Below are positions 26,159 to 30,123 of a stretch of DNA of 64,000 nucleotides, piece after piece. The position numbers and the translations under genes were made by a program. The stretch comes from Minisyncoccota bacterium (GTDB lineage: Bacteria; Patescibacteriota; Minisyncoccia; Phycocordibacterales; UBA9973). The stretch spans positions 91,763 to 155,762 of the forward strand of contig JBAZKU010000001.1 in NCBI GenBank assembly GCA_041650615.1. The letters are read 5' to 3'. Position 1 is the stretch's first letter. Each line of letters opens with the position of its first letter. Below the pieces are notes generated by a model that saw only the letters and a list, made by a program, of their open reading frames with translations, had not been told where the DNA came from and searched no databases.

Positions 26159-26971
26159 ATGCTAAAACCTTATTACGAAAAACCGAAATTTAAACTTTAT
26201 CATGCAAATTGCTTAGATATTCTTTCAAAAATTCCAGAGAATTCAGTTGATATGGTTTTTGCAGATCCACCTTACCTGCTTTCAAATGGTGGCTTTTCTG
26301 TTCATGCTGGGAAACGAGTAAGTGTTAATAAGGGGGAATGGGATAAAAGTAATGGTTTAAAAAAAGACTTTGAATTTCATCTTGAATGGATAAAAGCTGT
26401 TAAACGTGTGTTAAAACCAAGTGGGACAATTTGGATTAGTGGAACCTATCATTCAATTTATCAATGTGGTTTTGCACTTCAGGTCGCTGGATTTCATGTT
26501 CTTAATGATATCGCATGGTTTAAGCCAAATGCATCACCTAATTTAAGTTGTCGTTTTTTTACTGCTAGTCACGAGACCCTTGTTTGGGCACGAAAAGATA
26601 AAAAAGCAAAACATATTTTTAATTATAATTTAATGAAAAATGGTACTTGGCCGGAGGATGCACTAAAAAAACCAGGACTCCAAATGCGTTCTGTTTGGTC
26701 TTTAGGAACTCCTAAGCCAGTTGAAAAAAAATTTGGGAAACATCCTACACAAAAACCAGGAGATTTATTGAAGAGGATTATATTAGCAAGTACCAATAAA
26801 GGTGATTTAATAGTTGATCCATTTACAGGGAGTTCAACAACTGGAATCGTGGCACATTTCTATGGAAGAAATTTTATAGGAATTGATACTGAAAAAAAAT
26901 ATTTAGATTTATCAATAAAAAGGTTTAGGGAATTAGAGAAAAATTTAAAAAGTAAAAAGAAAAAAATATGA
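26159..26971 (+). CDS. beta-class DNA methyltransferase (N6-adenine or N4-cytosine)
   Basis: FADPPY (motif IV) lies N-terminal to DPFTGSSTTG (motif I). Start chosen at the internal Met to avoid overlapping pepN. Confidence 0.85.
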   Translation: MLKPYYEKPKFKLYHANCLDILSKIPENSVDMVFADPPYLLSNGGFSVHAGKRVSVNKGEWDKSNGLKKDFEFHLEWIKAVKRVLKPSGTIWISGTYHSIYQCGFALQVAGFHVLNDIAWFKPNASPNLSCRFFTASHETLVWARKDKKAKHIFNYNLMKNGTWPEDALKKPGLQMRSVWSLGTPKPVEKKFGKHPTQKPGDLLKRIILASTNKGDLIVDPFTGSSTTGIVAHFYGRNFIGIDTEKKYLDLSIKRFRELEKNLKSKKKKI

Positions 26972-27588
26972 AGATCATCACACGTACAGTAGCAATAAAA
27001 AATCTTAAAAAACACATTGGTAAAGATTTAAGAAAATTAGCTTTAGAACATAAAATTACAACTTATGAAACTGGTAAGCAAAATAAGGGATGGAAAGGGC
27101 TCGTTTTAGAAAGATTAGCTGGACTTGAAACAAATGTTTCAAAAGCGCCCAATGGTCTTTCCTGGGAGCTTAAATCGGTTGCTTTTCATTACGTTAAAAA
27201 TAAATTAGTACCAAAAGAAACTATGGCGATAACAATGATAAATCCAGAAGAACTAAAAGCTCACTCATTTTTTGAAAGTCATTGTTGGGCAAAATTAAAA
27301 GCTATTGTTTTTTGTGCTGTGCAATGGAATGGAGAAAATTCAAAAAGTGGTGAACTTTTAAAAGTTGCGAGTTTAGATTTTTCAGAAGATGATAAATTAA
27401 TAAAGGAAATAAAAGCTGATTATGATTTTATTCGTAATAAATTAATGACAAAGGGTTTCAAGTCCTTAACAGGGAAAGATGGTAAATGGATACAAGCACG
27501 AACAAAAGGTCCAGGACATGGTTCAACAAGTCGTGCTTTTTATGCACGAACAGCGTTAGTTAAGAAAATTTTTGAAATAGCTTCATAA
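26968..27588 (+). CDS. putative restriction endonuclease, MutH/Sau3AI-like
   Basis: NKGWKGLVLERLAG...SWELKSV resembles the MutH segment DKGWVGQLLE...GVELKT. Overlaps the MTase by 4 nt. Confidence 0.45.
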   Translation: MKIITRTVAIKNLKKHIGKDLRKLALEHKITTYETGKQNKGWKGLVLERLAGLETNVSKAPNGLSWELKSVAFHYVKNKLVPKETMAITMINPEELKAHSFFESHCWAKLKAIVFCAVQWNGENSKSGELLKVASLDFSEDDKLIKEIKADYDFIRNKLMTKGFKSLTGKDGKWIQARTKGPGHGSTSRAFYARTALVKKIFEIAS

Positions 27589-27615
27589 ATTATTAAAATA
27601 TGTTATAATAGATAT

Positions 27616-28632
27616 ATGTCAAAAACTGATTTAATTAAAAAAATTGAAGAAAAAAGAGGGTCAAAAGTTATTACTTATATTACAAGCGATAAACCAGGTC
27701 CAGTAAATGCTCGTGTAGCTATGGATATTATTCCGATTATCAGTGAACAACTTCGTAAAATAGGGAAAGTAAGTAAAATAGATCTCTTTCTTTATACAGC
27801 AGGTGGAGACACGATGGTTCCCTGGCGTTTAGTTTCTATGATTCGTGAATACTGTGATATTTTTTCCGTGCTTGTTCCTTATAAAGCTCATAGCGCAGGA
27901 ACGATGATAGCTTTAGGCGCTGACGAAATTGTAATGTCCGACCTTTCAGAAATTTCCCCAATTGATCCATCTACAGCAAATGTTTTCAATCCCAATGACC
28001 CAAATAATCCTCAAGCGAAAATTCCAATTTCTGTGGAAGACGTAATTGCATATTTTGATTTAGCTAAAAATAAATTTGGTATAAAAACTGATGAAGATTT
28101 AACAAAAATATTTAATAAATTTACAGAATCAAATCCACAGATCCATCCTCTGGCTCTAGGGAATGTTAACAGAACCCATAATTTAATTCGCTTACTTGCA
28201 AAGCGACTATTAAAAAGCCATGTAGATCCCATAAAAGAAGATCAGATTGAAAAAATAGTTGAATTCTTTACTGAAAAACTTTATTCACATCAATATTTTA
28301 TTGGGAGAAAGGAAGCCAAAGAAGAATTAGGGGTTAAATCGGTTGTTGATGCTGACTCTGAACTTTCGAAGTTAATGTCTGATTTATATACAGAATATGT
28401 GAAAGAAATGGAATTAGGAAGTCCTGTTTGGAATCTTGAAAATGAATTAGGTTTTAATAATAGTCAAAACAAGAAAGAATATAAAATTGCTTTCGTTGAA
28501 AGTAGTTTATTGTCAAAGTTTTATAAAATTACTATGGAATTTCGTCGACAACAGGTAATGATTAATCAAAATGGTATCCAAGTTCCACAAGAGCAAATAG
28601 CCCAACGAGTAGTGGAACAGGGGTGGAAATAA
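27616..28632 (+). CDS. ClpP/crotonase-fold serine protease (SDH-family-like)
   Basis: VPYKAHSAGTMIALGADEIVM...ISPIDPS; 338 aa. TATAAT lies 6 nt upstream of the ATG. Confidence 0.5.
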   Translation: MSKTDLIKKIEEKRGSKVITYITSDKPGPVNARVAMDIIPIISEQLRKIGKVSKIDLFLYTAGGDTMVPWRLVSMIREYCDIFSVLVPYKAHSAGTMIALGADEIVMSDLSEISPIDPSTANVFNPNDPNNPQAKIPISVEDVIAYFDLAKNKFGIKTDEDLTKIFNKFTESNPQIHPLALGNVNRTHNLIRLLAKRLLKSHVDPIKEDQIEKIVEFFTEKLYSHQYFIGRKEAKEELGVKSVVDADSELSKLMSDLYTEYVKEMELGSPVWNLENELGFNNSQNKKEYKIAFVESSLLSKFYKITMEFRRQQVMINQNGIQVPQEQIAQRVVEQGWK

Positions 28633-29261
28633 AGTTTATGCCGCAAACGAAATTTGATTTAAGAAAATATAATTTATTGGCTCTCATAATATTAGTATTT
28701 TTTGTTGGGTTTTTTGCCCATGAAGATCAAGGATTTATAGCCCTATCAAATTTTGTTAAGGATAATTTAGCAGTAATAGCCATTATTATTTCACCGATAA
28801 TAGCTTGGGGGGTTGCAGAAATAGTAAGAAAAAAAAGTGAAAGTAATAAGCAAAAGTATGAAGTTTTAAAAACCCTTATGTCTTATAGACATATTAAGGG
28901 TTCGCATGAATTTTTAAGTGCTTTAAATAGAATAAATCTTGTGTTTGATAGAGATTCTGAAATAAAAGATCTTGTAAAAAATCTTTGGAGATCTTATATT
29001 GATAAAGAAGAAAGAAAAGTAACTAATCAAAAAGAAATAGAATTAATTTATAAAATTTCCAAAAAAATGGGTTTTGATATTTCAGAATTTGAAATAGATA
29101 ATTTTTTTATCTCTGGAACTCAAATAATTCAACCTATTTCACAGAATCAAAATTCGAACAGTACAACTTCACAAAATCAAAGTAATTTATTTTCTCAAGA
29201 TATAAAAACTGATTCAATTACGGCAAATTCTTTTACATATAATCATGTTAGTTATGTGTAA
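28623..29261 (+). CDS. hypothetical membrane protein with an Asn/Gln/Ser-rich C-terminus
   Basis: Two predicted TM helices. Overlaps the protease gene by 10 nt. Confidence 0.6.
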   Translation: MEIKFMPQTKFDLRKYNLLALIILVFFVGFFAHEDQGFIALSNFVKDNLAVIAIIISPIIAWGVAEIVRKKSESNKQKYEVLKTLMSYRHIKGSHEFLSALNRINLVFDRDSEIKDLVKNLWRSYIDKEERKVTNQKEIELIYKISKKMGFDISEFEIDNFFISGTQIIQPISQNQNSNSTTSQNQSNLFSQDIKTDSITANSFTYNHVSYV

Positions 29262-29384
29262 TTTATTAATGCCCCCTTTCACCAAAAAGTTTATGAGGTT
29301 GTTAGAAAAATTCTCAAGAAAGCTAGTTTTGCATATTAACTGTGGTATAATATTATTATTAGCCATAATTAGATTATAAAATAT

Positions 29385-29798
29385 ATGTCAATTTTTTTTG
29401 AATGGGAAGAGAATATGTCTGTCGGTGAAGAGACCATAGATTCTCAACATAAAAAATTATTAGCGCAAGTAAATAAGATTATCAATGCTTTAGCTTTTGG
29501 AGTGCATTCAAAAGAGCTGGAAGAAGTGATTAAATTTTTTGACGAATATATAAAAGAGCATTTTGCTTATGAGGAAGGATATATGTCAAAAATTGGCTAT
29601 CCTAAAATAGAAGAACATAAAAAACTGCATCATAATTTTTTTGAAAACTATATTAAATTTAAAAAAGAATTTGAGCAAAATCTTAATAAAGATATTTTAG
29701 CGGCCGATATTGAAAGATATATTGGGGATTGGTGGTTGGAACATATAGGAAAAGAGGATAAAAAATATCGATTATTTGTAGAAAGTAAAAAATCATAG
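29385..29798 (+). CDS. hemerythrin-like metal-binding protein
   Basis: His/Glu ligand pattern H..KK...EHF.YEE...HKKLHH...WWLEH. Confidence 0.7.
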   Translation: MSIFFEWEENMSVGEETIDSQHKKLLAQVNKIINALAFGVHSKELEEVIKFFDEYIKEHFAYEEGYMSKIGYPKIEEHKKLHHNFFENYIKFKKEFEQNLNKDILAADIERYIGDWWLEHIGKEDKKYRLFVESKKS

Positions 29799-29865
29799 AA
29801 AAGATTTTGTGGGTTAATTATGCTATAATAGAAACATATTATTAATTAATAGAAGTAAAAATAAC

Positions 29866-30123
29866 ATGGTAGCAACAAAAGGTTCTGCATTTATGAAGCC
29901 AATGAACATAAGCGCTGAGTTGGCAGAAGTAGTAGGCAAGGGTCCTATGCCTAGGTCCGAGGTGGTAAAGGCATTGTGGGTATACATCAAGAAGAACAAT
30001 CTTCAAGACCCTAAGAATAAGCGCAATATCAATGCTGATGCTGCGTTAAAGAAAGTGTTTGATGGGAAGAGTGTAGTCAATATGTTTGAAATGACGAAGC
30101 TTGTTTCCAAGCATCTTTCGTAA
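29866..30123 (+). CDS. SWIB/MDM2-domain protein
   Basis: LAEVVGKGPMPRSEVVKALWVYIKKNNLQDPKNKR.I..D..L.KVF.GK..V.MFEM.KLVSKHL. Confidence 0.7.
   Translation: MVATKGSAFMKPMNISAELAEVVGKGPMPRSEVVKALWVYIKKNNLQDPKNKRNINADAALKKVFDGKSVVNMFEMTKLVSKHLS

Follow-up and report, generated by a model that had tools for sequence, protein, structure and literature searches.

A MutH-type restriction-modification pair beside a protease operon with swappable partner genes, a candidate conflict or defence system, in a Patescibacteria genome

Among the described proteins closest to those encoded at the locus reported here, MutH is a 229-aa endonuclease that nicks GATC in methyl-directed mismatch repair, together with MutS, MutL and Dam, Sau3AI is a two-domain protein of ~480 aa, and CcrM, a beta-class DNA methyltransferase (MTase), is an orphan cell-cycle enzyme. 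In NfeD/STOPP-stomatin operons, the substrate of the ClpP-fold membrane protease 1510-N is the product of its partner gene, and systems made of a protease plus an effector include bacterial gasdermin with its protease, Lit, IetAS and the type VI toxin-antitoxin system SocAB with ClpXP. Here we describe a locus of the candidate phyla radiation (CPR, Patescibacteria) in which a restriction-modification (R-M) pair of MutH type is followed directly by genes for a Clp-fold protease and a membrane protein. It occupies positions 26159-30123 of the window, by which we mean the whole 64-kb stretch of DNA that was analysed (positions 91,763 to 155,762 of contig JBAZKU010000001.1, assembly GCA_041650615.1, from a Minisyncoccota bacterium).

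Six open reading frames (ORFs), all on the + strand, fill this segment, according to the ORF list and translation of the window. The first four encode a beta-class N6-adenine DNA MTase (26159..26971, 270 aa), a single-domain MutH/Sau3AI-family endonuclease (26968..27588, 206 aa), an SDH-type Clp-fold serine protease (27616..28632, 338 aa) and a DUF6680 membrane protein with two transmembrane (TM) helices (28638..29261, 207 aa). The nuclease, the protease and the DUF6680 protein are each identical to an NCBI product. We consider it probable, though well short of certain, that these genes form a small defence island of two independent, adjacent operons, the first being a type II R-M pair and the second a protease-gated candidate conflict or defence system, whose candidacy rests on association. 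A previous reading of this DNA, made from its letters and ORFs (the sequence-only reading), had placed six genes here with the same domains, and Pfam and NCBIfam matches to the ORFs bear this out, as they do the MutH/Sau3AI likeness of the nuclease; the two TM helices were likewise confirmed, and its description of the segment as an accessory, defence-type island is supported by the R-M genes and their context. What did not survive is the chain of overlapping genes by which it had joined all four.

The protease, encoded by the head gene of the second operon, scored 58.3 bits against PF01972 (SDH_protease; Pfam threshold 31.3 bits, E 8e-16) and 70.8 against a cut-off of 250 for the NF047768 equivalog, which places it in the superfamily and outside the curated equivalog. 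It has no TM segment and is predicted to be cytoplasmic, and a comparison with PDB sequences gave no match at E up to 1. In an alignment with homologues of 24-46% identity, residues G63, G64, S93, D117 and H225 were invariant, and the Ser-Asp-His order of the SDH family is present on a ClpP/crotonase fold; with a predicted triad S93-D117-H225 and a predicted oxyanion pair G63-G64, the protease looks catalytically intact. Proteases 69-95% identical to it were found in ~90 related loci, with a ratio of nonsynonymous to synonymous substitution rates (dN/dS) of ~0.05. A genome-contig scan with a single protein query yielded 12 loci; the wider census of the protease comes from a metagenome scan.

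Between the nuclease stop at 27588 and the protease ATG at 27616 there is a 27-nt gap, which contains a predicted extended -10 promoter element, TGTTATAAT (27601..27609, + strand), 6 nt to the 5' side of the ATG. Of 90 related loci, 56 have a TATAAT-like box that lies 6-9 nt to the 5' side of the protease ATG, and in 40 of these TGn stands upstream of the box. Conservation of this predicted element suggests that the protease operon has its own promoter, and the 6-nt spacing of TGTTATAAT to the ATG suggests a transcript start that is leaderless or nearly so. The upstream neighbour of the protease gene is co-oriented with it in 54 of 72 cases and separated from it by a median of 55 nt; for the downstream neighbour the figures are 70 of 76 and 6 nt. 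This asymmetry points to an operon starting at the protease. In the window, TATAAT-like boxes stand 6-9 nt before an ATG at 26140-26158, 27601-27615 and 29340-29384, and leaderless transcripts may, as this suggests, be common in the lineage.

What follows the protease varies from locus to locus. At the window locus the variable partner gene is that for the DUF6680 protein, which matched PF20385 at 81.3 bits (threshold 23.2; E 8.7e-23). Charge distribution and an AlphaFold2 (AF2) model predict two TM helices with both termini inside, a cytosolic four-helix domain and a disordered S/Q/N-rich tail; the predicted local distance difference test score (pLDDT) of the model is 82-93 over aa 70-150, and a search of the PDB with the modelled fold returned no fold match, only generic helical ones. 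The protease gene lies upstream of the DUF6680 gene in 4 of 4 independent contexts, namely the window and the loci numbered L115-119, L122 and L120/121, with two genes between them in the last. The pair adjoins R-M genes in the first three of these contexts, and no R-M gene was found in ~6 kb of sequence around it in L120/121.

Over the related loci, the genes downstream of the protease belong to at least 12 families, unrelated as far as detectable, and the partner families lay downstream of the protease and on its strand in 108 of 108 cases. The partner sets are N-terminally anchored membrane proteins (families c1, c7 and DUF6680); a soluble protein with a three-TM protein (c2 + c5); DUF6941 with a coiled-coil single-TM protein (c4 + c3); TIGR04255 with c28 and a putative HEPN protein (c29); a set containing c38, with caspase-like His and Cys motifs; c65 and c85, putatively PD-(D/E)xK-like, these two and c38 being so described by eye; and SocA/Panacea-domain proteins. 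Comparison of the DUF6680, c1 and c7 families by hhalign detected no mutual homology (probabilities 0.6% and 2.8%), and the idea that they are remote homologues was rejected on that result. The nearest relatives of the window protease, 95% and 88% identical to it, have DUF6941 instead of DUF6680 and are without a MutH-type R-M pair. A SocA/Panacea protein stands directly after the protease in L016 (1218-1940; PF13274, E 8e-19 for this protein) and L106 (2320-2802); SocA is a ClpXP adaptor, so these placements give a hint of adaptor-type control of proteolysis. The c38 protein (216 aa; L080 7444-8094 and L087 2682-3332) carries GHGSDD and ISCRSA, which resemble a caspase/CHAT-like His-Cys dyad, and had no match in Pfam, PADLOC or NCBIfam; with c38, some modules may contain two proteases.

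We examined the genomic context of the protease in those non-redundant loci for which four or more neighbours were called, 67 in number. A DNA MTase lay within six genes of the protease in 35 of them, and an MTase or restriction endonuclease (REase) in 37. Within gene positions -4 to +5, motif-defined MTases accounted for 26 of 518 ORFs (5.0%), compared with 2 of 300 (0.7%) beyond them, a local enrichment (odds ratio 7.9, p = 5e-4) for which the background is the outer flanks of the same loci. MTases were found on both sides, 18 upstream and 27 downstream. The R-M systems concerned are unrelated to each other and include type III Mod + ResIII, type II systems of TdeIII, MvaI/BcnI and EcoRI-like kinds, Eco57I-like type IIG, a C5 MTase with Vsr, and GmrSD-HNH type IV. 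Fic, Phd, NYN and HEPN genes are also among the neighbours, and serine recombinases lie near the protease in L002, L008 and L017.

Outside the CPR, E. coli has a protein, WP_044064371, that is 34% identical to the protease and carries the annotation of an SDH family Clp fold serine proteinase. Its gene stands alone in lambdoid prophages, in reverse orientation, between those for the Q antiterminator and the holin, and occurs in 47 of 5426 complete E. coli genomes (0.9%). A relative in Gordonia phage BeeGee lies between tail genes and integrase, another in a Shewanella Mu-like phage lies between the late regulator and lysis genes, and the best PHROG match of the window protease is phrog_11747 (E 1.5e-38), a family without assigned function. 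These positions are typical accessory-gene slots. There is also a weak N-terminal likeness to phage head-maturation proteases (NF045542, E 3.7e-6; phrog_1684, E 1.2e-6), at a score of 27 against a cut-off of 120. No portal, capsid or terminase gene was found near the CPR protease loci, and the E. coli prophage has a separate HK97 prohead protease, the SDH gene being in the Q-to-lysis slot. A prophage remnant or head-maturation protease was rejected, because the scores are far below cut-off and structural genes are absent nearby.

A defence role for the protease operon is thus argued from the local enrichment of R-M and toxin-antitoxin genes, the conflict-type domains among the partners, the locked position of partners that are themselves swappable, the prophage slots and the conserved triad. 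Several observations weigh against it. Neither R-M nor dnaK-operon genes were near the protease in 25 of the 67 loci, many of them short contigs, and the background of the MTase enrichment is a local one; some co-location with R-M genes is to be expected because CPR genomes are small and R-M-rich. The AF2 model of the protease has a pLDDT of 68.7 and falls below 50 over most of 113-142 and 175-239, the segments that hold D117 and H225. In PADLOC-DB v2, only the MTase (MTase_II) and the nuclease (REase_II) had matches, the protease and the DUF6680 protein having no meaningful one, and a literature search on SDH/ClpP-like defence, PF01972, DUF114, DUF6680 and the E. coli homologue gave nothing relevant and no link of PF01972 proteases or DUF6680 to defence. 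The latter two results agree with the sequence-only reading, which had held that such a protease with a two-TM protein, fused to an R-M pair, matches no defence module described so far. Further contrary points, from the dnaK operons and from the solitary relatives, belong to the two main rival explanations, a proteostasis role and a recombination hot spot, neither of which accounts as well for the one-sided, tight placement of the partners.

According to the first of these, the protease serves housekeeping or the stress response, for example in quality control of membrane proteins or upon heat shock, much as NfeD, SppA or ClpP do, and it lies close to R-M genes only because tiny CPR genomes have few variable regions; we consider this unlikely. 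The protease and its partner were found within grpE-dnaK-dnaJ operons at six or more loci of different lineages (L004, L005/L006, L034, L105, L110 and L125), and dnaK-operon genes were near the protease in 5 of the 67 loci counted above, which suggests a role in proteostasis. The sequence-only reading had regarded conserved placement of the protease and membrane protein beside housekeeping genes, away from R-M genes, as evidence against its view; these operons provide such placement for the protease and a partner, while the pair with DUF6680 itself is mostly beside R-M genes. The placements, in several lineages, differ in insertion point and in partner set, and could represent a recurrent insertion site or a link to stress. 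The extreme purifying selection on the protease, the appearance of stomatin-specific protease 1510-N and SppA among the structural neighbours of its model, and the many partners that are small membrane proteins are also in keeping with a housekeeping function. However, the upstream context is not conserved. In the window genome, dnaK and dnaJ are found 15-25 kb to the 5' side of the island (dnaK 23 kb away), whereas in L034, whose DnaK is 85% identical to that of the window genome, the protease gene directly follows dnaK, so that the module moves relative to the chromosomal backbone. Moreover, the partners are mutually unrelated and include HEPN, Panacea and putative nuclease-like proteins, with no SPFH (Band_7) domain in the eleven that were scanned by Pfam; the MTase enrichment fades within ~5 genes; and homologues elsewhere are rare accessory genes of prophages.

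Alternatively, the protease gene could serve as a conserved homology arm at a recombination hot spot and be followed by independent defence or toxin-antitoxin cargo that has no functional tie to it, an explanation that we also regard as unlikely. It would account for downstream content that varies even between near-identical proteases, and for cargo of stand-alone types, such as the putative HEPN pair (c28 + c29), TIGR04255 and R-M systems. In E. coli and among the IMG/VR homologues, the protease lacks a partner, which is a further point against a protease-gated system, since the partner may then be independent cargo. Yet the partners keep to the downstream side in every case, with a median spacing of 6 nt, while R-M genes occur on either side; DUF6680 was never found without an upstream protease; and, with an upstream side that is not conserved, the protease is not a fixed chromosomal landmark.

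That the four genes are one integrated system, with the protease and membrane protein as a dedicated, co-expressed add-on to this particular R-M pair, is very unlikely, and comparative data largely refute it. The genes are on the same strand and tightly spaced, and the DUF6680/protease pair is beside R-M genes in three of its contexts, as described above. The same family of R-M genes is also near an SDH protease in L020-L022, L024, L059 and L102. In L059 and L102, however, the R-M genes are downstream of the protease and not upstream, and are decayed or incomplete copies of the pair: L059 (11038-12550) has only MTase and nuclease fragments there, and in L102 (10479-11297) an MTase of 88% identity is not followed by a MutH-like gene. 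In L020-L022 and L024 (~4189-9585), the MutH-type R-M pair is followed by three intervening genes (an 87-aa gene, one for a HARE-HTH protein and a 78-aa gene) and then by a distant SDH protease of 349 aa, ~26% identical over the N-terminal domain, and a serine recombinase on the opposite strand; here a second lineage of the protease accompanies this R-M pair, on what looks like an integrative element. Furthermore, the two proteases closest to that of the window (95% and 88% identical) are accompanied by different partners and different neighbours, the R-M types near the protease are mutually unrelated and on either side of it, and the protease has its own conserved predicted promoter.

The R-M pair, for its part, occurs without the protease in L019, L023, L025 and L027, and its contexts include OLD-family nucleases, an element with HEPN, Rep and serine-recombinase genes, and plain housekeeping genes. 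Homologues of the nuclease comprise more than 100 cluster representatives from many CPR classes, 84-95% identical and nearly all exactly 206 aa long. In nine further loci, reached through three of these homologues and representing six distinct contexts, a PF01555 MTase gene was directly 5' of the nuclease gene in every one; the MTase orthologues, each so placed before a MutH-like gene, are 74-87% identical. Between copies, dN is 0.08-0.21 and dS is saturated, which argues for long-term purifying selection and not for recent spread; for the nuclease, dN is 0.10 and dN/dS ~0.05. The R-M pair is thus a self-contained, ancient type II cassette, autonomous of the protease. One copy, 86% identical and adjoining ftsZ (L027, GCA_049303335.1), is from a bin labelled Aenigmatarchaeota and reflects either cross-domain transfer or a binning error.

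The boundaries of the genes lead to the same division. The MTase and nuclease genes share 4 nt, the ATGA at 26968-26971, as the sequence-only reading had stated, but the 10-nt overlap that it had proposed for the protease and DUF6680 genes requires the GTG at 28623 as a start. We favour the ATG at 28638, 5 nt past the protease stop, since three DUF6680 homologues begin with MPQT, the NCBI product is 207 aa long, and a Shine-Dalgarno-like sequence, GGGGTGGA, is upstream of this ATG. With this start and the gap with its predicted promoter before the protease gene, the argument for co-translation is valid for the R-M pair only and fails for a chain of four genes. Nor are the two pairs fused, as had been suggested, the R-M pair being found without the protease and close relatives of the protease without a MutH-type R-M pair, and the window arrangement of all four genes was seen in no other locus examined.

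Finally, the notion that the protease acts on restriction enzymes, by analogy with the degradation of EcoKI HsdR by ClpXP, and would so serve restriction alleviation or the safe establishment of incoming R-M systems, is highly improbable: the association does span R-M types II, IIG, III and IV, with 40 of 45 MTases on the protease strand, but R-M genes are absent near many protease loci, no R-M partner accompanies the protease in dnaK operons or prophages, no AAA+ unfoldase gene is adjacent, and the position-locked variable partners would have no role.

We now consider the two R-M proteins. The MTase, which constitutes the modification half, matched PF01555 (E 9e-58 by Pfam scan) and the PADLOC model MTase_II PDLC03371 (E 1e-100). 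In its translation, DPPY (motif IV, ~aa 36-39) precedes DPFTGSSTTG (motif I, ~aa 218-227), and for this reason it is of the beta class, in agreement with the earlier assignment. It has the PF01555 fold, motif order and DPPY of CcrM/HinfI and DpnA-type MTases, and its closest solved structure is CcrM (6pbd, E 2.8e-56). It differs from CcrM in lacking the C-terminal extension (270 aa, compared with 366 aa in the solved chain), in scoring 240 against a cut-off of 830 for the NCBIfam CcrM equivalog, and in being paired with a nuclease.

The nuclease, the restriction half, scored 41.5 bits against PF02976 (MutH; gathering score 23, E 1.3e-10), had an NCBIfam MutH match at E 2.7e-12, and aligned by HMMER with PDB MutH 2azo over residues 18-194 (E 2.4e-4). 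Its scores were far below the cut-offs of the Sau3AI equivalog NF040973 (51.8 bits against 300, E 5.9e-14, profile positions 8-189 only) and of the MutH repair equivalogs NF003458 (46.3 bits against 243) and TIGR02248 (31.5 against 230). It is a single domain, in contrast to Sau3AI, and its gene overlaps that of a beta-class MTase, in contrast to the repair gene mutH. It resembles MutH in size (206 aa, compared with 229 aa), in the KGW motif, in the E-x-K pair and in equivalents of E56, E91, K116, R184, K186 and Y212, whereas it has Asn in place of the first catalytic Asp and a following hairpin that is two residues shorter.

Alignments by HMMER to 2azo and by MAFFT both put N62 of the nuclease at the position of MutH D70, and E67 and K69 at those of E77 and K79, which confirms the Asn that the sequence-only reading had noticed at the expected catalytic position. 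N62 is shared by all of 120 close relatives. Among 81 aligned sequences of the wider family of ~200-aa single-domain proteins, 59 have D and 20 have N at this position (~25% N), the alignment consisting of 79 family representatives, the window nuclease and two MutH fragments; positions equivalent to MutH K48/G49, E56, E77, K79, E91, K116, R184, K186 and Y212 were conserved at 85% or more. From these features and the low dN/dS, we infer that the nuclease is probably functional, with an active PN...ExK site (N62, E67, K69), the Asp-to-Asn exchange probably being a natural variant of the subfamily that would still support metal-dependent cleavage. The doubt that had been expressed about its activity is lessened, though it is not removed.

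The target of the R-M pair is probably GATC, cut in a manner sensitive to N6-methyladenine (m6A), as judged from the retained MutH positions, which in MutH are catalytic, DNA-contacting and methyl-sensing residues. GANTC is also possible as a target, because the nearest solved MTase is CcrM, which recognises that site. In the window, 81 GATC sites were observed where 163 were expected (ratio 0.50), but the depletion is equal in CPR loci without this R-M pair nearby, and GANTC is depleted nowhere; since site avoidance does not discriminate between targets, the inference of a target from it was rejected, GATC depletion being general in CPR loci. Within the 3.1-kb island of R-M and protease genes, there are 11 GATC sites at 26264-28990, or ~3.5/kb, compared with 1.27/kb for the whole window, a difference that indicates that the island differs in composition from the backbone.

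The two remaining genes of the segment encode a bacteriohemerythrin (29385..29798, + strand, 137 aa; TIGR02481, E 2e-34) and a SWIB-domain protein (29866..30123, + strand, 85 aa; PF02201, E 7.5e-32). A 123-nt gap with TATAAT-like elements precedes the bacteriohemerythrin gene, which never adjoins the protease in any related locus. Both are unrelated neighbours, outside the two modules, and the SWIB gene belongs to the chromosomal backbone. The edges of the island in the window showed no convincing flanking repeats and no tRNA gene, and an Rfam search of 25.0-31.5 kb of the window gave no match. In L108, an 82%-identical SWIB gene and a 68%-identical TspO gene flank an island of the same kind with different contents, in which a TdeIII-type R-M pair is directly 5' of the protease. 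A TspO/MBR gene is at 30923-31321 of the window and lies no more than 8 kb from the protease, on either side, in seven other loci (L033, L067, L070, L095, L103/L104 and L108), which suggests that the TspO neighbourhood is a conserved chromosomal setting that hosts a variable region in Paceibacteria. Further upstream in the window, the AspRS gene (+) and the aminopeptidase N gene (-) are convergent, their 3' ends overlapping by 9 nt at 23546-23554.

In the arrangement that we favour, a small defence island of two operons, the m6A methyltransferase of the first module (26159-27588) would protect host DNA, and the MutH/Sau3AI-family endonuclease, of monomer size, would cut the unmethylated site. 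The second module (27601-29261) would be transcribed from its own promoter, and the protease would be translated together with its downstream partner, here the DUF6680 protein with its helical domain and tail facing the cytoplasm. Most likely, the second module is a protease-gated conflict module, in which the protease would degrade a potentially toxic partner and so restrain it, as happens in type VI toxin-antitoxin systems, or else would cleave the partner to activate it once infection is sensed, as happens in gasdermin or stomatin/NfeD pairs. In either case, the second module might provide an abortive-infection-type layer behind restriction. More speculatively, and with doubts that exceed our confidence, the protease and its swappable partner could be an undescribed, CPR-wide family of protease-gated abortive-infection or toxin-control systems that forms the main immune layer other than R-M, with the solitary relatives acting as prophage exclusion genes.

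The Patescibacteria make up a large share of bacterial diversity, are experimentally hard, and have few identified defence systems other than R-M. LdgA and the Dallas system are defence genes that a 2025 paper reports as specific to Patescibacteria. A conserved protease with at least 12 partner sets amid R-M genes is a clonable candidate for a new principle of immunity or toxin control, for which the E. coli prophage homologue offers a tractable entry point. If the protease proves instead to work in proteostasis, what remains is a defence island of the ordinary kind next to a housekeeping gene. The narrower interest of the R-M half lies in a PN...ExK variant of the PD-(D/E)xK site that is kept under strong selection in a widespread family of MutH-like restriction enzymes.

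Comparison with the known protease systems sets the second module apart from each of them. ATP-dependent ClpP has a Ser-His-Asp order, forms a tetradecamer and works with an AAA+ partner (ClpX or ClpA), whereas the window protease has the Ser-Asp-His order and no adjacent AAA+ gene, and thus falls outside the ClpP class. The protease of NfeD-stomatin operons has a Ser-Lys dyad, is membrane-anchored and has an SPFH partner, whereas the window protease is predicted to be cytoplasmic and proteases of its type have many unrelated partners, none of them SPFH among those scanned. The systems that combine a protease with an effector follow the same logic as that proposed here, in which a protease controls an adjacent toxic, often membrane-active effector in defence islands or prophage slots; yet gasdermin, Lit, IetAS and SocAB have no relation in sequence or fold to the second module, which is also without a recognisable sensor domain. 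In summary, the R-M half of the locus adds a member to a known kind of system, and the protease half is a candidate variant of the protease-plus-effector type.

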